A stretch of 64,000 nt of DNA. Source: a virus. The stretch is taken from positions 1 through 64,000 of IMG/VR virus record IMGVR_UViG_3300032323_003671, one strand, 5' to 3'. A program made the translations under genes and the position numbers. Below, piece after piece: positions 1 through 44,309 of this stretch. Under the pieces are notes generated by a model. That model was given only the letters and a program-made list of their open reading frames with translations, did not search any database and was not told the DNA's origin. Each line of letters opens with the position of its first letter. Within the stretch, counting starts at the first letter, position 1.

Positions 1-296
1 AGAAGGGATACCTCCCCCCTATTCTTTCAAGATAAAAATCCCCAATACAAAAAAAATATTATAAAAACAAAAAAAAAATAGTAAAATATTTTAAATAATA
101 GAGAAATAAATCCAAAAAAATATAAATCAAAAGTGAAATATTTCTTATTTTTGTTTAGGTCAATTCAAATTATGGAGAATTTCATTTTTTCGGTTTTTGC
201 AAAATCTTTTAGAGCATCCCTATTGCGAATGTTTGAATTCCATATTTATTGTAATTGACCAGTTCCTTTAATTATTCAAATATTTAATTACAAGCG

Positions 297-1121
297 ATGG
301 GGATCTCTAAAAGGCAAAAAAGAGTTCAGGGTTTAAAAAAATACAACCGAATACTTTCAGTCTTAATAAAAGACAAAAAGAAAAAGGGTGAAATTTACGA
401 TTTAAAGGAACTTCGTCAGTACGCAAGTAGTATTTACCCAAATTTCAAGCAAAAAGGCCTCAGGGACATTAAAAAAGGGGTTGTTTTAAGTTCTAGGCCT
501 AAAGAACTGCTTGAAACTCAAAGGGGGGCTGAAAGAAAAAAAGAAACTCCAGTATTTCCTGATGATTTAACAAATCCTGATAAAAGATTTTATTTTGATC
601 TTTATGATATGTTGGGTGATATTCAGTCAAAGACATCCAATAAAATCATTTTTGAATCAAAACTTGAAGGATCAGAAGGATTAATTATTCAAGGAGGTAC
701 TAAAATAGAGCCATCTATAAAAATATTCTACGAACAAAACTTCAAGAACTTTATTCATTATTTAGATCAGTTACGAAACAAAGGTTTAATTGATTACAAT
801 GACATTAAAATTGTTTGTACTGAACCGAAAAGAATTCCATTCTCATCAAATTGGAAAAGTTTTATAGTTTTGGCAGGTGCAGATGGTGAAGAAGTTGATC
901 CTGATTTAGAAAATTTGATTGATAATTATGATCCAAAAACAAGATACATAATTGAAAAAGCCCCAGACAAAAAGAAAAAGCCAAGACCAAGTGCAGCAGC
1001 TCAAATTAAAGATGATGAGAAGCAGAAAACGCTTCAATTAGCCTTGGAAATGGTTAAGAGAGGTGAAATGTCATGGGATAGGTATGATCAACTTTTAGAT
1101 AGGCTTTATCCTGATAAATAA
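297..1121 (+). CDS. hypothetical protein
   Basis: 274-aa ORF, first gene of the rightward arm; no motif recognised. Confidence 0.75.
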   Translation: MGISKRQKRVQGLKKYNRILSVLIKDKKKKGEIYDLKELRQYASSIYPNFKQKGLRDIKKGVVLSSRPKELLETQRGAERKKETPVFPDDLTNPDKRFYFDLYDMLGDIQSKTSNKIIFESKLEGSEGLIIQGGTKIEPSIKIFYEQNFKNFIHYLDQLRNKGLIDYNDIKIVCTEPKRIPFSSNWKSFIVLAGADGEEVDPDLENLIDNYDPKTRYIIEKAPDKKKKPRPSAAAQIKDDEKQKTLQLALEMVKRGEMSWDRYDQLLDRLYPDK

Positions 1122-9489: not shown

Positions 9490-10008
9490 ATGGAATCAAA
9501 AAACAAGAAAATAGAAGAGATTATTTCTATTGTTTGCAATCATCAAAATATTGATCCCAAACTTATAGAAGAGACAAGTAGAAGACCACCAATACCATTT
9601 TTGAAAAAAGTAGTTGCATACATGTTACATAGACATCTTTCATTAAAAACCGAAGCCATTGCCGAGTTGTTGAAATTCAAAACTCATTCAAATGTGGTAA
9701 CTCACTTGAAACGATTAGACGAGCAAATGAGCTACGATAAAAAGTTGAAAAATGAAATCGGTGAATTGAACACAATAATTATTGAAAAGGGAATTTCAAA
9801 GTATTCAAACAAAAATAATAAGTGGTATTTATTTCTGGATTTGAATGATTTTTTCATAGCCACAAAAGGAGAAAAATCAATCTTATTTCACAACCATACT
9901 CTGAATGAAATTGAATTCATATTAGGCGATGGATGGCAAATTACTGAACATACTAAAACCAATAAATTCTTATTCCAGAATTACAAAAGTTTAAACAACA
10001 AAAATTAG
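9490..10008 (+). CDS. DnaA domain IV (C-terminal HTH)-like protein
   Basis: IISIVCNHQNI...SRR...VAYML...IAELL..KTHSNVVTHLKRL matches the DnaA_C pattern. Confidence 0.65.
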   Translation: MESKNKKIEEIISIVCNHQNIDPKLIEETSRRPPIPFLKKVVAYMLHRHLSLKTEAIAELLKFKTHSNVVTHLKRLDEQMSYDKKLKNEIGELNTIIIEKGISKYSNKNNKWYLFLDLNDFFIATKGEKSILFHNHTLNEIEFILGDGWQITEHTKTNKFLFQNYKSLNNKN

Positions 10009-10030
10009 TAACCAATCAAAACAAATAAGT

Positions 10031-10276
10031 ATGACCGAAGAACAATTAGAAGAGTTTAAAAATTCTGGAATACTTCCCATGGAAGTTTATGATGATACAG
10101 ATAAAACTGAACCAACTACAGAGATAACTATTTGCGATAGCATTTCAGGTGGCGTACAAGAAATAGATAACATGCCTAGAACAATTAGTTTAGTTCGATT
10201 AAAACTAATTAATGGCAAGTGGAAGGAGTTTCGTGCTGAATATATAATGAGAATGACAGACATACCAGGTTTATAA
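10031..10276 (+). CDS. hypothetical protein
   Basis: 81-aa ORF after a GTAACCAAT leader. Confidence 0.65.
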   Translation: MTEEQLEEFKNSGILPMEVYDDTDKTEPTTEITICDSISGGVQEIDNMPRTISLVRLKLINGKWKEFRAEYIMRMTDIPGL

Positions 10277-10296
10277 ATACCCTTAAATAAATTAGA

Positions 10297-10689
10297 ATGG
10301 AAATTATTTTTACAAGACATATCGTATCTGCTGAATTAGTGAGTTCAAAACCAGCAAGAGGTTATTATGTATTTGATACTCGAAAAGTTCGTATTGGCTC
10401 TAAATTTTTTGGATTGATTCCTATTTATGCAAAAATGTCTGGAATATTCGATGAAGAACCATTTTCTTCTGGAGAATATTATGGATCAATAGATGAATTT
10501 AATTCTGCACATCCACATTTTTATTTTGATCAATTAAAAAATCGTCTTTATCATAAAGACCATGTAAAGATTGTTCTGAGAAATGGAACTACTACAGATA
10601 TATATTCAAGATATCCAAAAGTTTTAGAAAATCTTTTCGAAAAAATCAAAACGGAAAAGTTCATTGAACTAAAACGAAAAATTTTTTAA
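10297..10689 (+). CDS. hypothetical protein
   Basis: 130-aa ORF. Confidence 0.7.
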   Translation: MEIIFTRHIVSAELVSSKPARGYYVFDTRKVRIGSKFFGLIPIYAKMSGIFDEEPFSSGEYYGSIDEFNSAHPHFYFDQLKNRLYHKDHVKIVLRNGTTTDIYSRYPKVLENLFEKIKTEKFIELKRKIF

Positions 10690-10764
10690 TCAAAATAAAT
10701 AAGCATGTATGAACTGCACTTATTTCTTAAAAGACAAAAAAAGTAACCAATAAAATAGAATAGA

Positions 10765-11370
10765 ATGGAAAGAGAAAAAACAATAACTCATTATGAGGAA
10801 AATCCTATTACAATTTCAATTAAAAATCCAACAAACGAACAAAAAAAATGGGTTTTATTTGGGACAAATGTATTTTTACATGAAGATAATTTTGGTTCGG
10901 ATGAAGGATTAAAAATTGAGAATAATGGTAATTATTCATATCAATCAATTTTACAAGATTTATCAAGCAAAAAAATACCAATAAGTATGTTGAGAATAAT
11001 GACTGACGTTAAAGTCAATTTTAATCAATGTATTTATTTTGAAAAAATAACTAATAGTACAAAACAGTTTTCTTCTGATAAAATATCTGAACATCTTGAT
11101 CGATATCAATTTCAATCAAATATAATTCAAATGCCATGCAGCCTATTTTTAGATAAAGAACATACAATATCTGGAAAAATAGAACCTAATTCACAAATGA
11201 TTTTCTCATTTTATTCTCCAAAATTAGAATCTGAAGAAAAAACTAAATCCAGAAAAATTATCAAGAAAGAATATTTTTTACTTCGAATGGCAAGAAATAT
11301 TTATTCAAAAACGAAAACATTTAAAACAAAATTATTGACTTTAATAAAAATAAATAAGCATGGAAAATGA
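10765..11370 (+). CDS. early-region paralog of the candidate major capsid protein
   Basis: NPITISIKNPT...VLFGTN...FG...SYQSIL...DRYQFQSNII aligns with 37422 NPYVIQYVNST...VLFGYN...FG...SYAALI...DAYQFQSDIL. Confidence 0.7.
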   Translation: MEREKTITHYEENPITISIKNPTNEQKKWVLFGTNVFLHEDNFGSDEGLKIENNGNYSYQSILQDLSSKKIPISMLRIMTDVKVNFNQCIYFEKITNSTKQFSSDKISEHLDRYQFQSNIIQMPCSLFLDKEHTISGKIEPNSQMIFSFYSPKLESEEKTKSRKIIKKEYFLLRMARNIYSKTKTFKTKLLTLIKINKHGK

Positions 11371-11638
11371 AACAACTAAACCATTGACACTTGGAGAACA
11401 GAGATGTCACATTGACTTCAATCCTTCAGCAGATGATAAGATTGGAAAATTCAAAAGAATGATGGCTGATGCTATTGACTTTCTTAATCAGGAAGATAAA
11501 GACACAGAATTAAGAGGAGATGAATATATGGAGCAAGCAAGATGTTTTAAAATCGCAATGGAACATTTAGAAACAGCTCAAATGTATGGCGTTAAAGCAA
11601 TTTCCAAATCACTTAAAGTAACCAATAAAAATAAATAA
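11360..11638 (+). CDS. Acb2/Tad1-like helical hairpin protein (candidate cyclic-nucleotide sponge)
   Basis: TLGEQR..FNPS...ARCFKIAMEHLETAQMYGVKAI resembles the Acb2/Tad1 C-terminal hairpin. Confidence 0.5.
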   Translation: MENETTKPLTLGEQRCHIDFNPSADDKIGKFKRMMADAIDFLNQEDKDTELRGDEYMEQARCFKIAMEHLETAQMYGVKAISKSLKVTNKNK

Positions 11639-11640
11639 AT

Positions 11641-12261
11641 ATGCAAATCACAGAAAACTGGGGTAAAGACGAAAACGGTGAACAATTGTACATTGAGTTC
11701 GGTAAAAATGGCCAAGGAATCACAGAAGAATTGGTCGCCATTGGAAAAAGAATTGAAGAATTGAGTAAACAATACAATGTTTACCTTCATCACGAAAGTT
11801 TCATAGACACTGCGGATGATGTGTACACTTTGAAATTTCAGCTAGTTAAAAAAGAAAATACCTTAACTAATGAAAGTCGTATTCCATTGCAATCCTTAAA
11901 AGTTTCAGAAAGCACATGTAATTGGAGTCCAGATCAAAAAATGGATACATGCAATTGGATTCCACCTACAAAATCAGATACATGCACATACCCTTTTCAA
12001 AATGAAACACCCGAACCAAAATTTGTCGAGTTTGAAACCCCAGAAACAAGAAGTTTATCCTTGGATTTAGTTTCTCCAATTCGTGTTGTGGATCTTGATA
12101 AAGGAAGTTTTAAAATTGTGGATTCCGAGGATTCAGAATACTTCTTTTACCAAACTAAAACAGGAAAACTTGCCTATGATGGTTGTTGTGTTGCTGTTGA
12201 GAACAAACAAAAGGTATTTGATCATTTGGAGACTCCTAAACCAGAACAAGAAGCAAAATAA
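11641..12261 (+). CDS. hypothetical protein with short TCNW-type repeats
   Basis: STCNWSP/DTCNWIP/DTCTYP. Confidence 0.7.
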   Translation: MQITENWGKDENGEQLYIEFGKNGQGITEELVAIGKRIEELSKQYNVYLHHESFIDTADDVYTLKFQLVKKENTLTNESRIPLQSLKVSESTCNWSPDQKMDTCNWIPPTKSDTCTYPFQNETPEPKFVEFETPETRSLSLDLVSPIRVVDLDKGSFKIVDSEDSEYFFYQTKTGKLAYDGCCVAVENKQKVFDHLETPKPEQEAK

Positions 12262-12273
12262 AAATAAAGAAGT

Positions 12274-12441
12274 ATGAACGCTTACTATCACTATAAATAT
12301 AGTAATGGATTACAATTTGTATCAACTGCAAACGAAACAATAATAAGATTAAAAACAGATTTCGGTTGCGAAATACCAAAGTGTATAGGCGTTTGGAGAT
12401 TTAAGAAAGTAAACAAAAAAGTAACCAATAAAAACAAATAA
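12274..12441 (+). CDS. small hypothetical protein (55 aa)
   Basis: Read by hand; ends KVTNKNK like 11360-11638 because both run through the GTAACCAAT repeat. Confidence 0.5.
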   Translation: MNAYYHYKYSNGLQFVSTANETIIRLKTDFGCEIPKCIGVWRFKKVNKKVTNKNK

Positions 12442-12443
12442 AT

Positions 12444-12821
12444 ATGAAAGAAAAATCACTTCACAACACAACTGCAAATGGCGCAAAAGAGAACGTTAAA
12501 GACATTCAATTTTGGGGCGATGAGGATACATTCCTTTTAATTTCAAAAGCATCTTCTGAATCGGAAGGTTGGATGAAATCAACCAAAGCAATGCCTGCAG
12601 GAAATTCAGTTGTAGTTCAAGTAACGACACAACAAAGAAATCCAAACCTAACTAATTCAATTGCCGAAGCATTGACTACTGTTGATAATGCCATTATTTG
12701 GGAATTGATAGGCCAAGATGGTAAAGCAGAATATCGCTGTATTGTTCAAAGAACAGACAAACATAAAGGAATGCGAACATACAAAACAAGTAACGGGCAA
12801 ATCATTAATTCAGAACAATAA
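12444..12821 (+). CDS. phage hypothetical protein
   Basis: KASSESEGWMKSTKAM...VVQVTTQQRNP. Confidence 0.7.
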   Translation: MKEKSLHNTTANGAKENVKDIQFWGDEDTFLLISKASSESEGWMKSTKAMPAGNSVVVQVTTQQRNPNLTNSIAEALTTVDNAIIWELIGQDGKAEYRCIVQRTDKHKGMRTYKTSNGQIINSEQ

Positions 12822-12861
12822 GCGAAATAAAATCAAATCTTTTTAAAAGATTGATTGGTTT

Positions 12862-12933
12862 ATTCACGTGGCGGAATTGGTAAGACGCAAGTTATTTATA
12901 CGAAAGTTATAGGTTCGAATACTATCCTGAATA
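12862..12933 (+). pseudogene. tRNA-like element with degenerate anticodon arm
   Basis: Acceptor ATTCACG/CCTGAAT+A (one mismatch), D-arm TGGCGGAATTGGTAAGACGC, T-arm ATAGGTTCGAATACTAT; no pairable anticodon stem. Confidence 0.6.
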
Positions 12934-12947
12934 CAAAGCAAACAAAC

Positions 12948-13607
12948 ATGCAAATCACAGATAAAATATCAATTACTAATGAGGATAATATGGCATTGAT
13001 GTCTCGTTATCCAGATAAGTATTTTGATTTGGCGATTGTAGATCCTCCCTATGGCATTGGTGAAGATGGTGCTAAAAACCATTCTCGAAACAAAGCAGCA
13101 AGAGCCACTAAATACACATCAAAAAGTTGGGATTGTTCTCCACCTTCTATTGAATATTTTAATGAATTATGTAGAGTTTCTAAAAATCAAATTATATGGG
13201 GCGCAAATCATTTCATTAGTCGTATTCCTTTAGATAGCAGTTGTTGGCTTGTTTGGAATAAATTAAATTCTGGAGATTTTGCAGATTGTGAATTAGCATA
13301 TACTTCATTTAATTCATCTGTTAGAAAGTTTGACTTTAGATGGAATGGAATGATTCAAGGTGATATGAAAAACAAAGAAATCAGAATTCATCCAACTCAA
13401 AAACCTGTTGCACTTTACAAATGGATTCTTGACAAGTATGCCAAACCAGGTGATAAAATACTTGATACCCATTTAGGAAGTGGATCAATAGCGATAGCAT
13501 GTCATGACTACGATTTTGAATTGACTGCATGCGAGCTTGATTCCGAATATTACCAAAAAGCAATAGAAAGAATAAAAAAACATACTAATCAACAAAAACT
13601 ATTTTAA
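12948..13607 (+). CDS. DNA adenine/N4-cytosine methyltransferase (beta class)
   Basis: DPPY, HPTQKP, ILDTHLGSGS; likely start ATG 12948. Confidence 0.93.
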   Translation: MQITDKISITNEDNMALMSRYPDKYFDLAIVDPPYGIGEDGAKNHSRNKAARATKYTSKSWDCSPPSIEYFNELCRVSKNQIIWGANHFISRIPLDSSCWLVWNKLNSGDFADCELAYTSFNSSVRKFDFRWNGMIQGDMKNKEIRIHPTQKPVALYKWILDKYAKPGDKILDTHLGSGSIAIACHDYDFELTACELDSEYYQKAIERIKKHTNQQKLF

Positions 13608-13916
13608 ATGTCGAAACAAAAAATTTACATTGCTGGCCCAATTACTGGATATGATTTATCAGAGCGTGATGCAACTTTTAAGAAATATCAATTATTTCTA
13701 GAAGACAATGGTTTTGAGGTTGTAAATCCTATGACCTTACCACATGATCATGATAAAAGTTGGGAAAGTTATATGCGTGAATGCATTACTGAATTAGTGA
13801 AATGCGACAAAATATTTTTAATTCCAGATTGGCATAAATCAAGAGGTGCAAAATTAGAGTTCGAAATTGCTGATAGTTTGAATATGGGAATGATTACTTA
13901 CAGTGGAAATTTATGA
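13608..13916 (+). CDS. DUF4406 / nucleoside 2-deoxyribosyltransferase-like protein
   Basis: KIYIAGPITG...VVNP...W.SYMR...CD.I...W.KSRGAKLE. Confidence 0.85.
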   Translation: MSKQKIYIAGPITGYDLSERDATFKKYQLFLEDNGFEVVNPMTLPHDHDKSWESYMRECITELVKCDKIFLIPDWHKSRGAKLEFEIADSLNMGMITYSGNL

Positions 13917-14059
13917 TTAATATTAAATTCAAGAAGTGTCTCCCATTTACTCACAAATGGATATTATTCAATTACGATGGATACAGTAAAATCTTTTGGT
14001 GTAAAAAATGCGATAAAGTCAAATCAATAAAAATTAGTAACCAATAAAAATAAATAAAC

Positions 14060-14572
14060 ATGATTAATTATTTTCAAGTAAAAGTAAGAGTAACAAGAAC
14101 TATTAAAGGTAAACCAAAAAGAGTTTTTGAAAATTACCTAGTATGGGCGCAATCATTTACAGAGGCCGAAGCGAATATCATGCAATCTCTGTTAAATCCA
14201 GAAAGAGAAAATTTCGAGCAAAACAAAACAATGACTATCAATGCCATTGATCGATTCCAGATTGATGATATTTTTGGTTCAGATTTTTCTGAGAAGTATT
14301 GGTTAGTAAAAGTTGACTACAATGTTCTAGATGGTAAACCAGTAAGATTAAAATATCTTATCAATTCAGCATCACCTGAAAAAGCATCAAGTGAATTGCT
14401 TGAAATTATTGCAAAGAATGAATCATCATCAAGATTTGAAGTTACCTCAATTTCTGCTTCTTCAATTTTAGAAGTTTTCACTTATGAAACTTCAAATTCA
14501 ACTACAAATGAAAGCGCAGAAGAATCAGAAGAAGTTGAAGAATCAGAAGAAATGAATGTTAACGAAGACTAA
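14060..14572 (+). CDS. DUF4494 family protein
   Basis: YFQVKVR...ENYLVWAQSFTEAEANI; Bacteroidota family. Confidence 0.75.
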   Translation: MINYFQVKVRVTRTIKGKPKRVFENYLVWAQSFTEAEANIMQSLLNPERENFEQNKTMTINAIDRFQIDDIFGSDFSEKYWLVKVDYNVLDGKPVRLKYLINSASPEKASSELLEIIAKNESSSRFEVTSISASSILEVFTYETSNSTTNESAEESEEVEESEEMNVNED

Positions 14573-19193: not shown

Positions 19194-22100
19194 TTGAAAA
19201 AGATAAAAAAAACTAGCGATGCCAAGGATGGAGGACTATTTGTTGGCAAATCACATGACGATGGTGGGATTCCTGCTATAGTTGTAGATACTGGACAACC
19301 TATTGAGGTTGAAGGTGGTGAAGCTATTATTAATAAAAAGGCCACAGCCAAACACTGGAAAGAATTATCAAAAATCAATCAAAGTACTGGTGGCGTTCCA
19401 ATTCCTCCTCCTGATCGAGCAGATGAACTTATGGACAAGTTTGAAAAGGGAGGAAAGTTAACTCAATTGGAGAAAAAAACTATTCACAACAAGTGGAAAA
19501 ACTTGGTGAATATGACATACACTGAATTGAGAAAGTATTATGATTCCAAAGATGGCAAAACTAGTGGCTTAACTCAAAAAGAAGCTGATGATTTAGGTAT
19601 TGATTCAGGTCGTGAAAGTGCTGTATGGATCATGAAAATGAAACGCACAAACTACAAGGATTGGACACCTGAAATGTGGCGTTGGGCTAAAAAACAAATA
19701 AGTTTTATATCTCGAATGAGAGGTAACCAAGGCGAGTTAATGGAAAATGGCAGAAGAACTCCAAAATTAAAATCATTATTGATTTGGGGTCATAATCCTT
19801 ACAAATATGCAGGAGGCGGAGACATTCCAGCTGAAGCAAAGTATCCAGTTGATGCAAATTCTCTTCAAGTAATGCTTAAATATGCATCAAAAGAAGATGC
19901 ACCTGCTATTCAGGAACAAATAGCCAAACTTAAACAAGAACATAAAGAAAAGTACCAAAAGAATCGGAAAAAATATAAAGGAGGTGGTAAACCATCGGAT
20001 ATTGCCTCTGCAATACTTGGATTGAAAGCACTTTTGAAATATCCAGAATTACTAGAAAAATTTGATAAGGAAAATATAGAATACACTATCAAAGGATTAG
20101 AAATTCTTGATAAAATGCATCCTTCTGAAATTGATCCTAACGATACAAGTAGTGGAGTGAAATTTATTCCATACAAGGATTACGAAATAATGTATGATCC
20201 ATATACTAAAAACTACTATGCTAACGATGCTGAATTTGATTCTTTAGAAGATGCAAAAGCATTTTTAGATTCAGGTAAAATTTCTGATTCAATTAGAGGT
20301 GCAATGCATTATGAAGTGTATGGATATTCAAAAGGTGGGTCAGTAAATAATCAAACACTTTTAGCACCAAATGGTAAACCAACTAAATTAACTCCAGAAC
20401 AATACAAATTAGTTCGTACACCAGAATTCAAAGCCTGGTTTGGAGATTGGGAAAATGATCCTGAAAGCGCAAGTAAGGTAGTTGATAGTAATGGTGAGCC
20501 TAAAATATATTATCAAGGCGTACCATATTATCTATATCCTAATGGAAAATTTATTTACGAAAAAGATAATAATGGAATATTTTTTACATCTGATAAAAGA
20601 ATCGCTTTAACATATGGGGTAGTAAAAGAAGTATTCATCAATTGCAGAAATCCAAAAGATATCAGAAATTATTTTGGATTCGATGGTAAAAAAATACCGA
20701 ATAGTGTCAGAAATGATAGAAACTATGATTTTAAATCGGAAGAAGAAATCCAATATGCCAATTCAGATAAAGAAGTCATTAAATTTTATAAGGAAGTTAT
20801 CAATAAGTATGGTAAACCCATTGAAATAACTGTTGATTCTACTGGTGAAAAATTCAAATTTAAGAGTGTAGAAGAAATAAAAAAATTCTTAATTCCAACT
20901 TCAGAAAAAGGATTTTCATTTTTGAATTTTACACGTAGAAGTCTTTTTTGGAATTGGATAGCAGAATATATTAAAAATTCTGAATACGATGGGATATTTG
21001 CAACTGATGAAGATCGTCTTTCTGAAGAAATATCAGATAGTGTAGTTGTTTATAATTCTAATCAAATAAAACTTGCAGATGGAACGAATACTACTTTTGA
21101 TTCTGAAAATCCTGATATTCGATTTGAAGATGGAGGATCAGTAAATAATCAACCACTTTTAGCACCAAATGGTAAACCAAGTAATCTATCGCCAGAACAA
21201 TACAAATTAGTTCGCACACTAGAATTCAAAGCATGGTTTGGCGATTGGGAAAAATTGATTCAAGTCAAAATGAATGATTCTGCTATAGATGAAATTTCTC
21301 TGAAAAAAATATCAGATACAGTAAGTAAGGTCGTGGATTCAAATGGCGAACCTATGGTGGTTTATCACACAACTGACAAAGAATTTTTTATTTTCGATAA
21401 AAAAAAATCAAAAGAAGGATTCTTTTTCTCACCTCAAAAAGAAAGACTTTCAGTATATAATAAATCAAAAATAGGTCAGTATTTTTTAAATGTAAAAAAT
21501 CCTTCTCACGAATTGTTTAAATCAGATGTGAATTATATTTTATCGAAAGGATACGATGGAATTATGGATTATGGCCATGCAAGAAAAATAAATGAATCCT
21601 TGTATGAAATAATTGTTTTCGAACCTAATCAAATAAAACTTGCAGATGGAACGAATACTACTTTTGATTCTGAAAATCCTGATATTCGATTTGAAGATGG
21701 TGGCAAGACTGATTTAACATACAAAGAAAAATACAACAAGAAATATGGGTATGATTTGGATAAGTCTCACAGTCTTGAAGAAATAGCATCAAAAACAGGT
21801 ATTTCACTTGAAGGGCTTCAAGAAATTTTCAATAAAGGTGTGGGTGCTTATAGAACAAATCCTGAAAGCGTTAGACCAAATGTAAAATCTCCAGAACAAT
21901 GGGGAATGGCTAGAGTTTATAGCGCAGTCATGGGCGGTAAAACAGCAAAGATAGATTCAAAAGAACTTAAAATGGAAGGCGGAGGCAAAACCGATTCAGA
22001 AATGAATATAGAAAGATACGTTGTCAAACCTAGAGTAAAATTTGGGATGGTATTTGGGTATGTTGTTTACGATAATTTAGAAAAAAAGAATTTGCCTTAT

Positions 22101-22607
22101 GATTATGATGAAGATGAACAATGGAAAGCTCAATCAAAAGCAGATTTACAAAACGAATTGGAGAAAAATCGTTTAAATAAAATGGAAGAAGGTGGCGTAA
22201 CAGATAAAAAAGATACAGTAACCTTAGATATTCCATTACTCATAAGATTATTAGAATTATCAAGAGAAGACATTCAATCAGATGCTGACTTACACAAGGT
22301 TGTAGAAAATATGCTCGATTTAAAAAATAAGGAGGTCTTAACAATGGAGGATTATGATAAAATTTCTCAAATCGCAAAAGAAAAATTAATTTCCCAAGCG
22401 CATTATAATTTGACAAGAAAACAAGGCCGACCTGAATACGCACCGAATTCACGTGAAATTGAAGCAGAGATTGAAAGAATGATAAATACAGAAAAATCAA
22501 AATTTGCCGATGGTGGAATACTAGAATCTGATACAATGGTAGTTCTACAATCACCAACTGAAATGTTGGATGAAATCAACTTTAATGCACAATTTAAACC
22601 AGAATAA
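19194..22607 (+). CDS. modular polyvalent protein (DUF3140-like, two ART-PolyVal-like, DUF5824-like modules)
   Basis: VNMT..EL...SLLIWGHNP; two copies of RT.EFKAWFGDWE...KVVDSNGEP...NQIK; TGISL...GVGAY...EQWGMARV; modules separated by [FYM]xxGG. Confidence 0.75.
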   Translation: MKKIKKTSDAKDGGLFVGKSHDDGGIPAIVVDTGQPIEVEGGEAIINKKATAKHWKELSKINQSTGGVPIPPPDRADELMDKFEKGGKLTQLEKKTIHNKWKNLVNMTYTELRKYYDSKDGKTSGLTQKEADDLGIDSGRESAVWIMKMKRTNYKDWTPEMWRWAKKQISFISRMRGNQGELMENGRRTPKLKSLLIWGHNPYKYAGGGDIPAEAKYPVDANSLQVMLKYASKEDAPAIQEQIAKLKQEHKEKYQKNRKKYKGGGKPSDIASAILGLKALLKYPELLEKFDKENIEYTIKGLEILDKMHPSEIDPNDTSSGVKFIPYKDYEIMYDPYTKNYYANDAEFDSLEDAKAFLDSGKISDSIRGAMHYEVYGYSKGGSVNNQTLLAPNGKPTKLTPEQYKLVRTPEFKAWFGDWENDPESASKVVDSNGEPKIYYQGVPYYLYPNGKFIYEKDNNGIFFTSDKRIALTYGVVKEVFINCRNPKDIRNYFGFDGKKIPNSVRNDRNYDFKSEEEIQYANSDKEVIKFYKEVINKYGKPIEITVDSTGEKFKFKSVEEIKKFLIPTSEKGFSFLNFTRRSLFWNWIAEYIKNSEYDGIFATDEDRLSEEISDSVVVYNSNQIKLADGTNTTFDSENPDIRFEDGGSVNNQPLLAPNGKPSNLSPEQYKLVRTLEFKAWFGDWEKLIQVKMNDSAIDEISLKKISDTVSKVVDSNGEPMVVYHTTDKEFFIFDKKKSKEGFFFSPQKERLSVYNKSKIGQYFLNVKNPSHELFKSDVNYILSKGYDGIMDYGHARKINESLYEIIVFEPNQIKLADGTNTTFDSENPDIRFEDGGKTDLTYKEKYNKKYGYDLDKSHSLEEIASKTGISLEGLQEIFNKGVGAYRTNPESVRPNVKSPEQWGMARVYSAVMGGKTAKIDSKELKMEGGGKTDSEMNIERYVVKPRVKFGMVFGYVVYDNLEKKNLPYDYDEDEQWKAQSKADLQNELEKNRLNKMEEGGVTDKKDTVTLDIPLLIRLLELSREDIQSDADLHKVVENMLDLKNKEVLTMEDYDKISQIAKEKLISQAHYNLTRKQGRPEYAPNSREIEAEIERMINTEKSKFADGGILESDTMVVLQSPTEMLDEINFNAQFKPE
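21058..21700 (+). repeat. 76-bp identical direct repeat (21058-21133 = 21625-21700) in the duplicated ART-like module
   Basis: CTAATCAAATAAAACTTGCAGATGG...GATTTGAAGATGG occurs twice; module 5' ends (~20340 and ~21138) are also near-identical. Confidence 0.9.
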
Positions 22608-22610
22608 TAA

Positions 22611-25600
22611 ATGGAAGCCCAAGATATTCAAAAACAGGTAGAAGAAAGATTAAAAGCTCAACAAGAAGGCAAGGAATTCAAAGACATTGGTAAGGTTGCA
22701 TATACTAAAAAAGAAATGGCAGCCTACAGATTAATATCATCAAAAATGCTTGTGGATTTAGAAGTAGATCCTACAATAGCATTTAACATGGTCAAAAAAG
22801 AAAATGTTTGGCCTGCATATAATGTTCAAGAATTAAAAGAAAAAGGTGTTTCTAGTGGTGCTGCATTTATGATGGTTAAATTAAGGACATCAGTTCCTAA
22901 TAAACCTGAAAACTCTCCAAATAAGAGATCAAGTTATGTTCATTTTTTAGAATTACTTCAATCAGATTTACAAAAGTGTATGACTTACTCTGATGTTTAC
23001 AATTTGGCTCAAGAGTATCAAAAAATGCCATTGGATAAATTGATTGAATACTTTATCGATCCATCTATTTTCCAGATGGATGAAGAAAATAGAATACTTG
23101 TTTTAGAAAAAGCCAAAAATAATCCTTCTATTCAGAAATTTACAAGTCGAGGATCTATATATAATTTATTTAAAGAAGTATTTGCAACAACATTTGCAAA
23201 TCTCATTTTTAACAAGACAGATGCAACTAATGCAGTATGGTATCAAGCTAGAGAATTTGCAGCACTTTCAGAAGAAGATTCTAAAACGCTTATTGACAAA
23301 CAAATTGAATCGACAAAAAAGCAAGTAGAAGAAAATAATGCTGAAATTGAAAAAATCAAATCTGCATCATTTTCAGAACTAAAAAAAATAGCTGAAAAAT
23401 ATTACAGATTAAGTTCAGCAGCTAAAAAAATATACTATAGTGATCAACCTAAGTTGATGGAATTTCTATTAGAAACCTTTCAAAGGAAAAATCAAAGGAG
23501 GGAGCTTGAACTTGCGGCATACAAACAAAAATATTCTCCAAGGTTAGAGGATTGGAGTTGGTTTGAAAAACCTAAAACTGAATCAGATACTCCAACAAAA
23601 AAGAGAGAGAAATCTATTAATACCAAAGAACCTTTATCTTATATAAAAAGAATAGGTGGATATAAAATAAACACTGTCAAGGCACAAGAAATTATTGATT
23701 TATTTGGTTTTTCAGCTGTCAATTATGGAAAATATGTTGATGATGCCTGGTCGAAGCAACACACTAAACATTTTTTAGGTGCAATTTCAGATTTAGGTGA
23801 TGTTTTAAACATTGATATTAAAAAAGTAAATGAGATAGGTGGATTGTCTATTGCTTTTGGTGCGAAAGGTATTGCTGGACACATGGCAACATATTTTTCT
23901 CAAAGTCATGATATAAATCTTACTAGAGGAAATGGAGATGGTTCAGTTGCTCATGAATGGGGACATTATTTTGATAACATACTTTGTGATTTATCTGAAA
24001 AGAAAGCAGAACCAAAATTTGCATCAGCATCAAAAGCTGATAACGCAAGTATATCTGATATAGTTTCAAAAATAATGAACTTTATTTATAAAGGAGATCC
24101 AGAATATACCCCTAGAATTCCAATGACTTTTTATGCCAAAAAGTCTAGTTCTGTACCTTCGTATTATAGTTATAAATATGGCAATCAGTCTATAAAAATT
24201 TTAGATACTATTGAAGAAACGTTAGATCAGTATTTAGATTTAGCAGAAGTAAATAGAGATAGATATAATACTCAGTTAAGAGTTTTTGGATATATCATCG
24301 ATGCCTTCGGTTTGGATAAATATTTGATTCCTATGAAATTGACTACAAGTTATCACTTTCATAAATCTGCTTATTTTTCTTTCGTTTATTCAGGCACAAA
24401 AGAAAATGGTCAGCCTGCAATAATTACTGGTACAAGATCAGCCTATTGGACAAAAAATGTTGAGTTGTTTGCAAGAGCTTGGGAAACAGTAATTCTTAAA
24501 AAATTACTAGACAAAAATAGAGTTAGCAACTATTTAGTTGCTGATATTAATATGCAAGATGTCATTGATGAAAATTGGTTTCAACCTTATCCACAAGGAA
24601 AAGAACTTGAATATCTTGAAACTTTAATTGATGAACTAATAGATGCATTCAAATTAGTTTATTCGGTGGGAGATTTCAATCCACCAAGTAGTATCAGAGA
24701 GGATGAATATTTAGATTTATCTCCGAATACAGATGAAGGTAAAACTGAATCAGGAATGGTAATTGATAAATCAACCGAAACAAAAACAACAACTTTTATT
24801 GAAAACGATAAGGTAGTTGAACAAATTAAAAAACCAAGAAAACCTAGAACAAAGAAAACCGAAGCTGTCTCTCCAGAACCAAGTGTGGCAGCAATTGAAG
24901 AAAATTCTCTAGAATTACAAGAAGATGAAGAACCAAAAGTAGAAGAAATGCAAGAACAAGTAAAAAATGAATCGATTGACGATTCTCAGATAAATGTTTC
25001 TCTTTATGCAAATAATTGGAATCAAGTTCCTATTCGATGGAAAAATGTCAAAGGTATTCGTCCAATAGTAGTCAGTTTAAATCCATTTGATAAAAACCTA
25101 TTAAGTCTTGCAAAAATTATTGTCAATACAAACATTAATTTCACCCCAAAACCAATTTTTAGTGCAATGTCTTTTGATAGCTCTGGAGTAACTTTTACAG
25201 ATGCAAAGAAATTAGTTCATATCGCAGGTGAAAACATAGATTACACAGGAAACTATCCTACTTCTGAAACATCAAAATTTTTTCCAGGTTCAATTGAAAA
25301 ACAAACCAAAGAATTGAATGCTATTCAATATCCGAATTGGAGATCGATAGTACCTAAAGAAAGCAAAGTAGAAAAAATAGAGATTGATAAACTTTATCAG
25401 TATGTTGTAGTTGCACTAAACTATGCAAACAAAATAAATCATACCATTGGATTTAAGTTTAGCAATTCAGATTTTATTGGATTTGATGGTGAGTTTCTAA
25501 AAGACATTTTAGAAGTACTTATGAAACTGCAACATACCAAAGATATCTATGTTCATTGGGCAAGTTCAAGTAGAGCTGTTTTATTTAGTTATGAAAAATC

Positions 25601-27032
25601 AATTGACATTGAAAAATCAACTTATGCGTTATTAATGCCGATGATGTTGCATGATGGTATTAATCAATTAGGTGCATCAGATATTGATTACAAAAAAGAT
25701 TTGAATTGTTATTTTGATTTTTCTGATAATCAAATTTATAATGCCGATGGATCAGTAGCAGACTACAAAGAAAACTATGGAGATGCACCAGGAATGTCTT
25801 TGAATTTAATTTCAATGTTCGCTTCTTTCTTAAAATCAAGTAAATCAAAAAAAGACGCATATTTTTATAGCTACATAAGAGTAGATAACGATAGTATATT
25901 GGTTTCTGATAAGAATACAAGACTTGAAATTCCAAATGATTATGATTTAATAACAGGTCTTTATACTATTGAGAACAATGTTTTAATTCGTGATATTTCT
26001 GCAGATATAGATAACTATTCACTCGAAAAGAGAATAGCTACAAAAGATCCGATATTTGTTGCTAACACAGAGCAATTGCTTTTTTATATGAACAAAATGT
26101 CAAATCACCTATCTGATGATGATGATTTCAGACCTAAATTATCTGGATATATTTTTGAGAAAAAAGATAATCAAGTAAATGCAGTATCTACAGATGCTCA
26201 TACTTTGATCAAACTTGATATCACAAATGCAATTGAATCTTCAATCGATGAATTCAATGTAATTCTTGGGAATGCCACAACATTAATGAATGTTTCAAAA
26301 TCTTGGGATTCAAAAAAAGTTGCGGTTTACATTGATAGTAAGGAAGAAAAATATCGTATCGTTTCAGATAGAATTCATTTTGAAGGTAAATTATATGACA
26401 AAGGCGTTACAAATTGGCGAGCAGTAACTCCAAACATTGTAAATAATCAATTGAAATTTAATGTTAAAGATTTATTCTCTTGTTTGACTAATCCCGAACT
26501 TAAAAAGTATGCCGATAAATTCGGATCAAAAGTAAAAGACCTAGCTTTGTATAACAACTTTAATGAAGTTTATGCGATTTATGATGCAAAAAACAATAAT
26601 GAAAGTATCAAAGTTTGTGATTTAAAATTAAATCATACTGAAATAAACGAGTTGTTTAATATCAATGAATCTTATGTTTTAATAATGCCTGTTGTATTTA
26701 CGAATGGAAATTATTTCAATTTAGGAATAGGCAAACTTGAAGATGTAATGAATTCTATTGGTAAAGAAGAATGTACAGTAGTATATAAGGAATTAAATAG
26801 TGGCTATGTCTTCACTTCTGAAAATCTTTATTACAAAAACTCGGATGTTTACAAACCTGAGAAACCTAAAAAAGTTCAAAAACCAGTTGTCAAACCATCT
26901 GAACCTACTAATCAAAAGCAAGAAATATTAGATGCTTTAACTGGTGCGAAAACACTACTAAAATACGTATCAGGAGAGGATAAATCAAATCTTTCGGCTT
27001 ATATTAGAGGACTTGAAATCCTAATGAAATAA
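22611..27032 (+). CDS. large polyvalent protein: zincin/LPD1-like region plus beta-clamp-like repeats
   Basis: AHEWGHYFD and ELFARAWE; C-half YPNWRSIVP, IGFDGEFLKDIL, LLMPM, DDFRPKLSG...VSTDAHTL. Confidence 0.7.
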   Translation: MEAQDIQKQVEERLKAQQEGKEFKDIGKVAYTKKEMAAYRLISSKMLVDLEVDPTIAFNMVKKENVWPAYNVQELKEKGVSSGAAFMMVKLRTSVPNKPENSPNKRSSYVHFLELLQSDLQKCMTYSDVYNLAQEYQKMPLDKLIEYFIDPSIFQMDEENRILVLEKAKNNPSIQKFTSRGSIYNLFKEVFATTFANLIFNKTDATNAVWYQAREFAALSEEDSKTLIDKQIESTKKQVEENNAEIEKIKSASFSELKKIAEKYYRLSSAAKKIYYSDQPKLMEFLLETFQRKNQRRELELAAYKQKYSPRLEDWSWFEKPKTESDTPTKKREKSINTKEPLSYIKRIGGYKINTVKAQEIIDLFGFSAVNYGKYVDDAWSKQHTKHFLGAISDLGDVLNIDIKKVNEIGGLSIAFGAKGIAGHMATYFSQSHDINLTRGNGDGSVAHEWGHYFDNILCDLSEKKAEPKFASASKADNASISDIVSKIMNFIYKGDPEYTPRIPMTFYAKKSSSVPSYYSYKYGNQSIKILDTIEETLDQYLDLAEVNRDRYNTQLRVFGYIIDAFGLDKYLIPMKLTTSYHFHKSAYFSFVYSGTKENGQPAIITGTRSAYWTKNVELFARAWETVILKKLLDKNRVSNYLVADINMQDVIDENWFQPYPQGKELEYLETLIDELIDAFKLVYSVGDFNPPSSIREDEYLDLSPNTDEGKTESGMVIDKSTETKTTTFIENDKVVEQIKKPRKPRTKKTEAVSPEPSVAAIEENSLELQEDEEPKVEEMQEQVKNESIDDSQINVSLYANNWNQVPIRWKNVKGIRPIVVSLNPFDKNLLSLAKIIVNTNINFTPKPIFSAMSFDSSGVTFTDAKKLVHIAGENIDYTGNYPTSETSKFFPGSIEKQTKELNAIQYPNWRSIVPKESKVEKIEIDKLYQYVVVALNYANKINHTIGFKFSNSDFIGFDGEFLKDILEVLMKLQHTKDIYVHWASSSRAVLFSYEKSIDIEKSTYALLMPMMLHDGINQLGASDIDYKKDLNCYFDFSDNQIYNADGSVADYKENYGDAPGMSLNLISMFASFLKSSKSKKDAYFYSYIRVDNDSILVSDKNTRLEIPNDYDLITGLYTIENNVLIRDISADIDNYSLEKRIATKDPIFVANTEQLLFYMNKMSNHLSDDDDFRPKLSGYIFEKKDNQVNAVSTDAHTLIKLDITNAIESSIDEFNVILGNATTLMNVSKSWDSKKVAVYIDSKEEKYRIVSDRIHFEGKLYDKGVTNWRAVTPNIVNNQLKFNVKDLFSCLTNPELKKYADKFGSKVKDLALYNNFNEVYAIYDAKNNNESIKVCDLKLNHTEINELFNINESYVLIMPVVFTNGNYFNLGIGKLEDVMNSIGKEECTVVYKELNSGYVFTSENLYYKNSDVYKPEKPKKVQKPVVKPSEPTNQKQEILDALTGAKTLLKYVSGEDKSNLSAYIRGLEILMK

Positions 27033-27059
27033 ATAATAACTTTGTTAAAATCTTTTAAA

Positions 27060-27524: not shown

Positions 27525-27541
27525 AATCAAAAGTTCTTATC

Positions 27542-34516: not shown

Positions 34517-35356
34517 ATGTCAGATTCAAATCTTAGAGAAGCAGGTATGATGGCCATTACTGGTATTCAAGGTGTCGGAAAGACATACTTGAACCAGCAT
34601 ATTATTTACGACTATGTTCGTGATAAAGTGGCTATTAAAGTACGTGGTAGAAAGTGTCTTATTTTTGATACCAATGGTGAGTACACTAAAAGTCAATTTG
34701 AGAAAAATGGCATGCAAAACTTTGATGCCAAAATCATTGCCATAAAAGACGTTGGTCAATGGAGTAAGTCTCCAGGAATTGAATGCCGAAGAATTGATGC
34801 AAAAACTTTGCCGATCATGCAAAAGCGTGAGGCTATCGAGTATATCATGAGACATTTTAGAAATGGCATGTTAGTACTAGAGGATGTCAACACATATATT
34901 CTCAATGTAACACACATGGAGAAAATTGTATCAGGTCTTGTATCTCTTCGACATAGGGCAGTTGACATTTTGATTTCATATCAGTCTTTGCGTGTAGTAG
35001 AGCCTCGTATTTGGCAAAATAGCCGATGGGTGCGCATGCATTACCAAGCGGATAATGTAAATGATATCAAGGGTAAAGTAAATAACCCTACGATGTTTAA
35101 AATCGCTCAGTACGTTGTAAATAATCGTTATTTCGATGGTGATAAGCGTTTCTATGTTTACATTCACAATTTTGCCAATAAGATCGAAGGTGATTTTACT
35201 TTGGATGAATTCAAAAAAGCATGCGCTCAATATATCAATGCCAACAAGAAGTATTTGAAAGAATATAAAGAAATGAGTAATTGTTCAGATGCCGAAGCTA
35301 TTGAAGGATTAACAAACCAATATATTTCTCAGTATTATGGAAATGACAATCAATAA
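34517..35356 (+). CDS. A32/P9-like FtsK-HerA genome-packaging ATPase
   Basis: Walker A GIQGVGKT, IFDTNGEY, Walker B LVLED, arginine finger LRH, ISYQS...P.I.QN; 279 aa, no nuclease domain. Confidence 0.85.
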   Translation: MSDSNLREAGMMAITGIQGVGKTYLNQHIIYDYVRDKVAIKVRGRKCLIFDTNGEYTKSQFEKNGMQNFDAKIIAIKDVGQWSKSPGIECRRIDAKTLPIMQKREAIEYIMRHFRNGMLVLEDVNTYILNVTHMEKIVSGLVSLRHRAVDILISYQSLRVVEPRIWQNSRWVRMHYQADNVNDIKGKVNNPTMFKIAQYVVNNRYFDGDKRFYVYIHNFANKIEGDFTLDEFKKACAQYINANKKYLKEYKEMSNCSDAEAIEGLTNQYISQYYGNDNQ

Positions 35357-37421: not shown

Positions 37422-38174
37422 ATGAACGCAACAGAAAAAGAATTGCATCGCTTTTTAGGGGTAGCTGAAAAAATGTCTGGATACGATGGTATGGACTATG
37501 AAGGCGACCTTTCGTCTTTTGACGATATGGATTTCTTTGATGGTGGAGAAGGTATTAACGACCCGATGTCTTTCGCTGATGGTGGAGCATCAACCGTTAA
37601 CGTTTCTAACCCATACGTTATCCAATATGTTAACTCAACACCAGGTACTCTTACCGCTGTGTTGTTCGGTTACAACAACTTCTTTAATGATCCAACAGGT
37701 CAGTTCGGCAACCCAGTGGGTATCACCGTAACCAACTTGCAAGGTTCATCTTATGCTGCCTTGATTGGTCAGACTTCAAACAAAGCATTCCAAATTGGAA
37801 AATGGCGTTTTCAGTCTGCTTCAGCTGGTCAGTTGAGCCAAACACTTACTGTATCACATTTCGATGCGAACGGTAACCAATACTCAACTCCGTTGAACTT
37901 ATCAATCATGCGTGATGCTTACCAGTTCCAGTCAGATATCTTGGATATCACCAAGGTAATCACAGTGGACGGTAACACTCAAATCACGTTCCCATTGTTA
38001 GCGTTGACTACATTGGTAATCTCTATGTTCCCAGTAAGCGTTGTTAGTACTAAAGCAGTACTTAACGGTGGTATAGCTCTTAACAAAGCAGTTGCTCCAC
38101 GTCTTTCTGGTAAAAACGTAGCACCAGTGATTATCAACACTAATCAAAGAGTTGGTGGCGTAACCAAAGCGTAG
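37422..38174 (+). CDS. candidate major capsid protein (beta-rich, possibly single jelly-roll) with acidic N-terminal propeptide
   Basis: High-expression codon bias (TTC/AAC/ATC/GGT/CGT), own promoter and terminator, near the packaging ATPase, two paralogs; fold not verified. Confidence 0.6.
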   Translation: MNATEKELHRFLGVAEKMSGYDGMDYEGDLSSFDDMDFFDGGEGINDPMSFADGGASTVNVSNPYVIQYVNSTPGTLTAVLFGYNNFFNDPTGQFGNPVGITVTNLQGSSYAALIGQTSNKAFQIGKWRFQSASAGQLSQTLTVSHFDANGNQYSTPLNLSIMRDAYQFQSDILDITKVITVDGNTQITFPLLALTTLVISMFPVSVVSTKAVLNGGIALNKAVAPRLSGKNVAPVIINTNQRVGGVTKA

Positions 38175-43364: not shown

Positions 43365-44309
43365 ATGAATATCTGGGAAGAAGATATCAATGAATGGGAT
43401 GGATCATCTTACGATGATTTGTTCGAAAATAATTCTCAAAACTTAGATGATTTTGAGAATGAACCTGATATTATGGATATCGAGGATATCGATTTTAGTG
43501 GCATTAATGGAAAATCAACAAAAGAAAAACTTCGCAAAATTTCCAGAAAGACTGTTTCAGCTCGTATAGTTCCCAAAAAAAAAAGACTGAGTAGTGATAA
43601 GTCAATTTCAAGAAAAATAGTTGCGAAGCGAAATGTTGAATATGTTTTTAGTAAAAACAAAGGCCGACAAACCACCACTGAGATAAAACTCCCTGATAAT
43701 CGTGAGGTTCTTATTAAAGGTGTAGATGAGTTTATTCTATCCCAAGGTAGTGATCAAGTAAAGAATATAGGTTATTACAAAGGCGAGAAACTTCGTGAGC
43801 TTGTCCTAATCATAAATAATACTACTCCAAACGACATTGACATTGAATTTTTCAATCTTTCAACTCCTTTGGATTACATGTATGCAACTGCCAATAACTT
43901 AAACAATCTGATTCAAGTAGCTGGTGATAACAAGGTTAGTTACTCCGACATGTTGTTTAACTTATTAGCAAATCCAACAATTTTGCCAAACGCAAAATTT
44001 AGTTTATCTGGGCCTTTCAAAGATGCTCAGTATGCTCAACCAATGATTTTCAAGAATAAAAATATTGCAGGTTTTGAAAAAGTACATCCAATTCAAAACT
44101 CCTTGAATATCGATATAGATCAGAATCAAAATGATATTGTTTATTGGGATATAGAACAGAGCTTAGGACGATTATTTTGTCCTGATGGTATGGACGTGAT
44201 GCAATATAAAGTTCTTGCAGGCATGTCCGTTATTTTTGGCTTCTACTATAAGCAAATCAGTTTGAAAAAAGTATTTATCCCAGAACTTAGAAATAAAGGT
44301 ATCCTATGA
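43365..44309 (+). CDS. second capsid-family protein with acidic and basic N-terminal extension
   Basis: C-half INNTT...SYSDML...QP...DIDQNQNDI...DG..V.Y.VLA...V aligns with 37422. Confidence 0.6.
   Translation: MNIWEEDINEWDGSSYDDLFENNSQNLDDFENEPDIMDIEDIDFSGINGKSTKEKLRKISRKTVSARIVPKKKRLSSDKSISRKIVAKRNVEYVFSKNKGRQTTTEIKLPDNREVLIKGVDEFILSQGSDQVKNIGYYKGEKLRELVLIINNTTPNDIDIEFFNLSTPLDYMYATANNLNNLIQVAGDNKVSYSDMLFNLLANPTILPNAKFSLSGPFKDAQYAQPMIFKNKNIAGFEKVHPIQNSLNIDIDQNQNDIVYWDIEQSLGRLFCPDGMDVMQYKVLAGMSVIFGFYYKQISLKKVFIPELRNKGIL

Follow-up and report, generated by a model that had tools for sequence, protein, structure and literature searches.

Why would a virus keep, among its replication and methylase genes, a leaderless relative of a protein that may build its own shell? 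The question is raised by open reading frame (ORF) 10765-11370, which lies in a 64,000-nucleotide stretch of viral DNA, hereafter the window, comprising bases 1-64000 of the 73,262-base linear IMG/VR virus record IMGVR_UViG_3300032323_003671 (CheckV completeness 48%). ORFs are named below by their first position. A first-pass annotation of the window had called ORF 10765 a third capsid paralogue that lacks a propeptide. We find that 10765 is an intact, selected, strain-specific derivative of a jelly-roll family, that it stems from a foreign lineage, and that it is without the leader and without one conserved motif. As to function, we tentatively favour, at a probability of roughly 0.3, the reading that its product is a non-assembling capsid mimic which would act as an immune antagonist, a decoy, together with the product of a neighbouring sponge gene.

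Homology and architecture of the 10765 product

BLASTP aligned residues 12-176 of the 10765 product with residues 62-229 of the product of ORF 37422, the main late jelly-roll gene, with 38 of 168 positions identical (23%; 43.9 bits, E 4e-10). When the whole window was searched by tblastn, the two proteins retrieved only each other below E 0.4 (7.8e-8 and 9.3e-8). A family profile (A1), built from 98 homologues of 37422, was then used to search every one of the 590 six-frame segments of the 73-kb record and returned 37422 (E 8.4e-88), 10765 (E 1.1e-32) and ORF 43365-44309 (E 7.7e-7), the next segment standing at E 0.25. In hhalign comparisons the 10765 alignment matched the family alignment with a probability of 99.6% (E 2.2e-24, 139 columns), and residues 145-296 of 43365 matched it with 90.3% (E 1.5e-6), this copy being the C-terminal domain of 43365. 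Because profile and hhalign searches pick out 37422, the 43365 C-terminal domain and 10765, we conclude that the genome holds three paralogues, as the first-pass annotation had proposed. The similarity to 37422 on which that proposal rested is thus significant at the profile level, and the motifs it had named (NP..I...N.T, VLFG.N.F, FG, SY and D.YQFQS.I) are all visible in the alignment of 10765 with 37422. The motifs conserved throughout the family and kept in 10765 are P-Y/I..I.N.T, LFG.N, NFG, Y..L and D.YQ.Q..I. ORF 42587, considered as a hidden fourth paralogue, was ruled out (hhalign 7%).

AlphaFold2 modelled 37422 and 10765 as beta-sandwiches with the same strand order, the predicted local distance difference test score (pLDDT) being 86.3 for the model of 37422, whose sandwich spans residues 60-225, and close to that for the model of 10765 (Table 1). 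Four fold matches, 6q5u_O, 8h2i_bC, 8rbs_A1 and 5j7o_A, were common to both models. In the structural search against representatives, Z values below 8 fall within the tool's stated background. The best jelly-roll match of 10765, chain 6q5u_O of phage PR772, is under that guide (Z 6.3, root-mean-square deviation (rmsd) 3.4, 95 residues aligned), and its other matches include the non-viral AlgX (Z 6.2) and an arabinofuranosidase.

It is at the ends that the two proteins part. Residues 1-60 of 37422 have a net charge of -11 and are predicted to form a helix (residues 3-18) followed by an acidic, low-confidence stretch. The 10765 protein is without a counterpart of this acidic leader; its residue 12 pairs with residue 62 of 37422, so that it does begin, as had been noted, where the leader of 37422 ends. 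To call that leader a propeptide finds no backing, as there was no sign of cleavage or of a protease, and many family members are without a leader. At the other end, residues 151-201 of 10765 carry a net charge of +12, with a hydrophobic moment of up to 1.45, and are modelled largely as one helix; the basic tail seen at first pass is real, and that of the orthologue P0002 is likewise basic. The motif PRLSGxNVAPVII is found in 37422, in its close relatives and in all five of the basic-tail relatives introduced below, is absent from both 10765 and P0002, and is replaced in 10765 by the long basic helix. Co-folding of 10765 with the 37422 core (residues 59-250), with alignments supplied for both, gave a score of 0.01 and a mark of 0.32, which speaks neither for nor against binding.

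Origin, distribution and maintenance of the gene

Was 10765 made by duplication of 37422? The sequences argue that it was not, and that 10765 is nested in a different subfamily with basic termini. Within the family set the best BLASTP matches of 10765 were P0048, P0109, P0086, P0123 and P0087 (30-38% identity, E 1.9e-20 to 1.7e-26), and its own 37422 ranked far lower (23%, E 6e-8). All five relatives begin with a short basic stretch (MKFFKKKK-like), carry PRLSGxNVAPVII and end in a basic C-terminus; members of their subfamily have no long acidic leader and lie on contigs of up to 55-58 kb. An IQ-TREE phylogeny of 48 core domains (LG+C20 posterior mean site frequency model, quick search) joined 10765 to P0002 (support 100) and placed the pair inside the basic-tail clade (Shimodaira-Hasegawa-like approximate likelihood-ratio support 95), where its stem measures 1.3 changes per site; the 37422 lineage was separate (support 93). 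To force 10765 and P0002 together with the 37422 lineage cost 35.9 log-likelihood units (approximately unbiased test, p 0.048), a borderline value for a group that was named after the tree had been seen. An earlier FastTree tree, in which 10765 and P0002 formed a deep long branch, is superseded by this site-heterogeneous tree. In composition, too, 10765 stands apart: its GC content is 23.4%, versus 32.4% for the record, and its GC content at third codon positions (GC3) is the third lowest of 76 ORFs. The gene is a paralogue, as had been claimed; a duplication of 37422 as its source is what BLASTP ranks and tree contradict. Scans of IMG/VR with 10765, P0002, P0048 and alignment A4 returned nothing, nor did scans of JGI metagenome contigs (alignment A2 and P0002) or of GTDB (A4); these absences are weak evidence because the scans use few exact peptide patterns.

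The gene is also accessory. Fourteen related IMG/VR loci were found and 11 whole related records were searched. The main, 37422-type copy was present in 12 of 12 records, the window's own included, and a 43365-like copy, at E<=0.01, in 8 of 12; a 10765-like copy was present in none of the 11 related records. Extra copies were confined to the window's record (10765 itself), to relative G004 (two) and to G007 (one weak match with an internal TGA). When relatives G001-G003 were searched directly, 10765 retrieved main copies only, and the Acb2-like gene that overlaps it (below) retrieved nothing. A gene that none of the 11 related records holds is no core part of the virion; the check on distribution thus upheld the accessory standing of the gene and spoke against a core virion component. 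The homologues of ORFs 9490 and 14575 directly abut in G001 and G002 and are about 0.7 kb apart in G003, so the intervening segment of the window is a 4.5-kb island (Table 1). ORFs 10031, 10297, 11360 and 11641 had no homologue in any relative fetched, and the setting of 10765 among accessory ORFs, described at first pass, is borne out by an island missing from three syntenic relatives. The gene lies about 26 kb upstream of the late module, between a DnaA_C-like gene and methylase genes, and an N6/N4 DNA methylase is encoded in the same island. The island is mosaic among near-identical strains: contigs of strain X3 join across 12255-12826, skipping 12256-12825 and so dropping ORFs 12274 and 12444. 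A homologue of ORF 12444 is found elsewhere in G002, at 2397-2693. The two extra paralogues of G004 (255 and 242 residues, at G004:C1:103573-105080) are leaderless and lie between the ATPase gene and the main copy; both are without PRLSGxNVAPVII, and the 242-residue one ends, as 10765 does, in a tail that is basic and amphipathic.

Rare as it is, the gene is maintained. Only two clusters of 10765 at 90% identity were found among 5.8 billion proteins, one of four near-identical variants, all of 201 residues, and the other the orthologue P0002, which has 200 residues, 60% identity and long core blocks invariant between the two. Contigs from three other metagenome studies cover 10765, with no insertion or deletion listed. 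The decay in relatives that might have disposed of the first-pass reading was not seen. The differences among these contigs (depth 4.9-8x) were listed completely for X3 and X10 (16 and 5 "other letters"); the listing covers 2 of 8 differences in X2, and 40 of the 164 differences in the whole stretch. X3 and X10 together have 12 changed positions in 11 codons of 10765, ten of these codons being changed by replacement and one synonymously; positions 11233 and 11235 share one codon in one contig, where GAA has become TAT and not a stop. The neighbouring ORF 11641 had 7 replacement and 7 synonymous changes (Fisher p 0.036 versus 10765), and the rest of the listed differences comprised 14 and 11, respectively (p 0.058). 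The replacement count of 10765 did not differ from neutral expectation (binomial p 0.31), and strong purifying selection (omega 0.2) was rejected (p 0.0015). There is a hint here of replacement-biased change in 10765 among close strains.

The gene that overlaps the 3' end of 10765 had been described as Acb2/Tad1-like, and rightly so: ORF 11360-11638 matches Pfam PF24729, Acb2_Tad1_hairpin, above cut-off (E 5.5e-7; 30.1 bits, cut-off 27) over profile positions 2-57 of 58. It had no PDB sequence match at E<=1. Its product is a putative immune-signal sponge. Contigs of runs X3 and X10 each bridge from 10765 into this gene. Promoter and terminator scans were not above chance (34 sigma-70-like sites versus 30.4 expected), and a Bacteroidetes-type promoter motif matched 6 times versus 7.6 expected. 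For 9500-13000 no RNA data set was listed, and the contigs of X15, a run labelled RNA-Seq that is probably DNA, lay off the gene.

Table 1. Positions in the window of ORF 10765, its parts, its paralogues and associated features.
Feature	Position	Strand	Remarks
ORF 10765-11370	10765..11370	+	201 aa, ATG start; accessory paralogue of the jelly-roll structural family; AlphaFold2 mean pLDDT 83.3
Jelly-roll core, residues 12-150 of ORF 10765	10798..11214	+	Family-profile alignment; AlphaFold2 strands 15-150, pLDDT 85-98
Basic amphipathic C-terminal helix, residues 157-199 of ORF 10765	11233..11361	+	AlphaFold2 single helix, pLDDT 56-73
ORF 37422-38174	37422..38174	+	250 aa; main late jelly-roll protein, reference paralogue; putative major structural/capsid protein
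Jelly-roll domain, residues 145-296 of ORF 43365-44309	43797..44252	+	Second late paralogue; family profile and hhalign
Acb2/Tad1-like gene	11360..11638	+	92 aa; overlaps 3' end of ORF 10765 by 11 nt
Accessory island, about 4.5 kb, holding ORF 10765	10031..14572	+	Missing at syntenic site of relatives
P-loop ATPase, candidate packaging ATPase	34517..35356	+	279 aa; upstream of ORF 37422

What the family builds and what 10765 may do

How far the 10765 product may be called capsid-like depends on what 37422 encodes. The family is large: phmmer with 37422 against 1.84 billion cluster representatives gave 457 matches at E<=1e-3, 180 at <=1e-10 and 23 at <=1e-30. It is also unnamed. No model of Pfam, PHROGs, NCBIfam or PADLOC matched 10765 or 37422, and Pfam run over all 98 family members gave two isolated weak matches only. 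A PDB profile search for the family found nothing, and the ESM Atlas gave no usable match; tblastn of 37422, 10765, P0048 and P0059 against GenBank phages, and megablast of positions 10000-13000, were likewise without a match.

In the structural search the top rows for 37422 were a nepovirus capsid domain (Z 6.7), PR772 chain 6q5u_O (Z 6.5, rmsd 3.2, 98 aligned), the phiCjT23 capsid (5.9) and FLiP (5.7), and further matches were to PBCV-1, EhV-201, STIV, faustovirus, adenovirus hexon, PRD1 P3 and ASFV p72. Capsids of small RNA and single-stranded DNA viruses are also in the list, as are tail proteins, carbohydrate-binding modules and nucleoplasmins. About 23 of the top 50 rows, judged by their entry titles, are viral capsid proteins, all at Z < 8; Foldseek matches were weak. 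Chain 6q5u_O was deposited as "Spike protein"; its similarity to P31, the penton protein of PRD1 (E 6.3e-15), identifies it as the penton-like N-terminal domain of P5. The models, in sum, fit a viral jelly roll and fall short of proof of one.

Gene order, conservation and codon usage add to the case. Identity to relative G002 was 80% for the ATPase 34517, 75% for 37422, 70% for 42587, 63% for 43365 and 62% for DnaB. ORF 37422 has the highest GC3 and the highest GC content (42.5%) of the 76 ORFs. The ATPase encoded upstream gave Pfam hints that were all below cut-off (DUF87/HerA 2.2e-4, TrwB 1.1e-3). It has 552 homologue clusters at E<=1e-3, a few of which carry PF01935, and the best 120 of the 552 are all at least 66% identical to it and lie on contigs of up to 111 kb. 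Downstream of 37422 are four consecutive ORFs with hydrophobic, membrane-span-like stretches, followed by peptidase M15 and holin-like genes. No terminase, portal or HK97-type capsid gene was found in the record by Pfam (68 ORFs) or PHROGs (59 ORFs). The same was true of the collinear 146,216-base relative G004 among the 120 of its 138 ORFs of at least 130 residues that were scanned, the other 18 being 14 homologues of window ORFs already scanned and four that cross piece boundaries. Fused members of the family have two jelly-roll domains (P0037, P0059, P0114 and P0143) or three (P0120). In P0143, P0114 and P0120 it is the first domain that falls with the 43365 domain in the tree (support 0.94, very long branches).

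From all this, 37422 is likely a structural protein of the virion, and the odds that it is the major capsid protein are somewhat better than even. It is weakly suggested that 43365 and 37422 correspond to the two halves of the fused tandem members, and that their products pair as in two-subunit capsomers. The case for assigning the family to capsids is circumstantial: it draws on the fold, on the order and conservation of the genes, on codon bias and on a lack of HK97-type capsid, terminase and portal genes.

What, then, would a disarmed member of such a family be doing beside a sponge gene? In the reading that we favour, the 10765 product would not be a building block of its own virion. It would mimic a capsid-type subunit, be produced together with the sponge, and bind, without activating it, a host immune sensor for such structural proteins; the neighbouring sponge would soak up whatever nucleotide signal was still produced, and the basic helix might tether or oligomerise the mimic. 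Every step from the mimic onward is our inference. In its favour are the homology of the core, the accessory status and foreign origin of the gene, the lost motif, the retained frame, the replacement bias, and the Acb2 and methylase context. One report maps mutations that escape the cyclic-oligonucleotide-based antiphage signalling system (CBASS) to prohead protease, capsid and tail fibre genes (10.1101/2023.05.21.541620), and another describes hot spots in which anti-signalling genes cluster, with several CBASS and Thoeris inhibitors adjacent (10.64898/2026.06.04.730250). These two reports give the idea of a decoy a rationale.

Much weighs against the decoy. One would expect a sensor of capsids to be set off by a capsid-like binder and not to be blocked by it. 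Literature searches on this question found no precedent for a capsid-like sensor antagonist. At 23% identity, 10765 is a poor mimic of its own 37422, and the capsid role of the family is itself putative, with fold matches at Z <=6.7, under the guide of 8. What would link 10765 to signalling immunity is its neighbourhood alone; the Acb2-like call is a single Pfam match of 30.1 bits with no PDB sequence match, and in phages neither an overlap with a gene nor company in an island says much about function. The excess of replacements amounts to 12 positions in low-depth contigs (4.9-8x) and is compatible with neutral drift. Finally, the motif-less extra copies of G004, which lie in the late module, point towards structural roles.

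Three other explanations were weighed against the decoy. The jelly roll might have been exapted, for example as a membrane- or nucleic-acid-bound adaptor acting through its basic helix, or the gene might be a near-neutral passenger nearing loss. Such ideas sit well with a protein that no family, defence or anti-defence model matches, and with a fold that is common in carbohydrate-binding and other non-viral proteins, AlgX and the arabinofuranosidase being among the matches of 10765 itself; the ratio of replacement to synonymous change fits neutral expectation, and the distribution, two clusters in 5.8 billion proteins, is rare and patchy. They sit poorly with a frame that is still whole in an orthologue of 60% identity and almost the same length, long blocks being unchanged, and that is intact also in contigs of three other studies; if strong purifying selection is rejected, so is simple decay. 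As a whole this alternative is about as probable as the decoy, but our estimate for it pools several ideas that have nothing to do with one another, and no single one of them is more probable than the decoy.

A second alternative would make the product a poison subunit. A capsid-type gene captured from a rival lineage and expressed early would be built into the capsomers of relatives infecting the same cell, or would cap them, and so disrupt assembly, giving superinfection exclusion. This reading best explains the foreign origin and the motif loss of 10765, which nests in a foreign, basic-tail clade and not in its own lineage, has specifically lost PRLSGxNVAPVII while keeping the core, retains the basic tail of that clade and changes among strains with a bias to replacement. 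The clade's contigs reach 55-58 kb, and its members are therefore plausibly main structural proteins of similar viruses, that is, possible targets. Capsid-derived dominant-negative restriction factors exist in animals (Fv1, enJS56A1); to our knowledge, and with no search made, there is no phage precedent for a capsid-type poison subunit. Identity to the nearest putative targets is 30-38%, and the stem is long (1.3), so that compatibility of interfaces is doubtful; moreover, that PRLSGxNVAPVII makes lattice contacts is an assumption. We consider the poison subunit rather unlikely.

Least likely, to our minds, is an accessory virion component, an optional vertex, penton-type or membrane-linking subunit whose basic helix reaches the internal membrane or the DNA: penton-type subunits are commonly without the arms of major capsid proteins, the top jelly-roll match of both models is the penton-like spike domain 6q5u_O (Z 6.5 and 6.3), and G004 has its two leaderless paralogues, one of them basic-tailed, between ATPase and main gene, but those Z values are within noise, none of the 11 related records, all of which have the main copy, holds 10765, its place is with replication and methylase genes some 26 kb away from the late module, by phylogeny it does not co-evolve with its own 37422 lineage, and its extreme AT-richness is the opposite of 37422, which tops the GC3 ranking.

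Taken as a whole, our tentative picture is of a mimic captured from a rival lineage, stripped and coupled to a sponge, which would serve as an immune antagonist or a poison subunit in an undescribed, widespread lineage of bacterial viruses of at least 146 kb with a jelly-roll shell in place of an HK97-fold capsid and a HerA/FtsK-type ATPase. In the papers listed by our literature searches, no description was found of the family, of the virus group or of capsid-like anti-defence decoys, nor of a foreign-origin capsid-type paralogue in an accessory island beside a sponge gene. The family is unnamed in Pfam and PHROGs; extra jelly-roll paralogues with varied appendages are known from jelly-roll viruses, P31 and P5 of PRD1/PR772 for example. 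More and more, bacterial immunity is found to be triggered by structural proteins, and if the picture is true, a disarmed, fast-changing capsid-type copy next to a gene for a signal sponge would represent a new type of counter-measure or weapon of competition.

The virus group and known systems

The window comes from a group of bacterial viruses that is abundant, its records running from 48 to 146 kb, and that may consist of undescribed large phages with jelly-roll capsids. The group is marked by polyvalent proteins, by an ATPase of HerA/FtsK-like type, by small jelly-roll proteins and by several membrane proteins in a row, with no recognisable morphogenesis genes of tailed phages in the 73-kb record or in G004 (window 19194-58800; G004 loci L031-L038). 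Jelly-roll-capsid phages of up to 146 kb would be remarkable in themselves, and perhaps a larger novelty than 10765. The "moraphage" paper concerns tailed jumbo phages and is not linked to the present group. One related locus, L021, is on a contig whose name is labelled "GVMAG" (binned with giant-virus metagenome genomes); its gene content fits the bacterial-virus group.

Several other features of these genomes were noted. At the head of the late module (window 19194-30073) are three giant ORFs of 1137, 1473 and 843 residues with ART-PolyVal, DUF5824, LPD1 and LPD11 domains, and the 1473-residue ORF has a DNA polymerase III beta-like domain (Pfam below cut-off; phrog_947 1.3e-12). At the left end (window 1-1121 and G001-G003), four independent contigs end 215-305 nucleotides before the homologue of ORF 297-1121, which suggests a true fixed terminus of the genome and not a random assembly break. 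A sulfotransferase gene (51940-52764) and, in the opposite arm (59355-60565), APS-kinase-like and cytidylyltransferase-like genes may together provide the virus with a sulfation pathway of its own. In the right arm, which faces inward, a minus-strand ORF of 167 residues (62551-63054) has the C-terminal domain of a bacterial RNA polymerase alpha subunit (Pfam E 1.5e-16), and its product is a candidate for taking over transcription. In G004 the long right arm (G004:C1:1-67000, L031-L034) has three TnpB/IS605 OrfB genes, RNA ligase, NAPRTase, R2K ATP-grasp and SPFH genes, and no structural genes were found in it.

How does 10765 compare with what is known? With its own jelly-roll family, of the 37422 type, it shares core and motifs; it differs in having no leader, no PRLSGxNVAPVII, a helical tail of about 45 residues, a position outside the late module and no conservation among relatives. 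Its nearest relatives are the basic-tail subfamily, which it resembles in being without the long acidic leader and in having a basic C-terminal end; that subfamily keeps PRLSGxNVAPVII and the short basic N-terminus, whereas 10765, on its stem of 1.3, has neither.

Among described viruses, PRD1 and PR772 come closest. Their P31, and the P31-like N-terminal domain of P5, are small viral jelly rolls, paralogues with different appendages, and the PRD1 gene order of packaging ATPase, capsid gene, small membrane proteins and lysis genes is like that of the window. There is no sequence similarity between these proteins and 10765, the fold match is at Z < 8, and the window's ATPase has no BLASTP similarity to that of PRD1. 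Further, P31 and P5 are core late genes, whereas 10765 is accessory and lies in the replication arm.

The Acb2/Tad1 hot spots are alike in the gene that overlaps 10765; the published ones hold CBASS and Thoeris inhibitors side by side, whereas 10765 itself resembles no sponge and matches no family of PADLOC, Pfam or PHROGs.

A last comparison is with Fv1, enJS56A1, Sid of P4 and CpmAB of the SaPIs. All are host or satellite genes, and none is a phage-encoded jelly roll. The likeness of 10765 to them would be one of mechanism only, no homology being expected: they are capsid-related or capsid-binding proteins that stand outside normal assembly and interfere with the shell.

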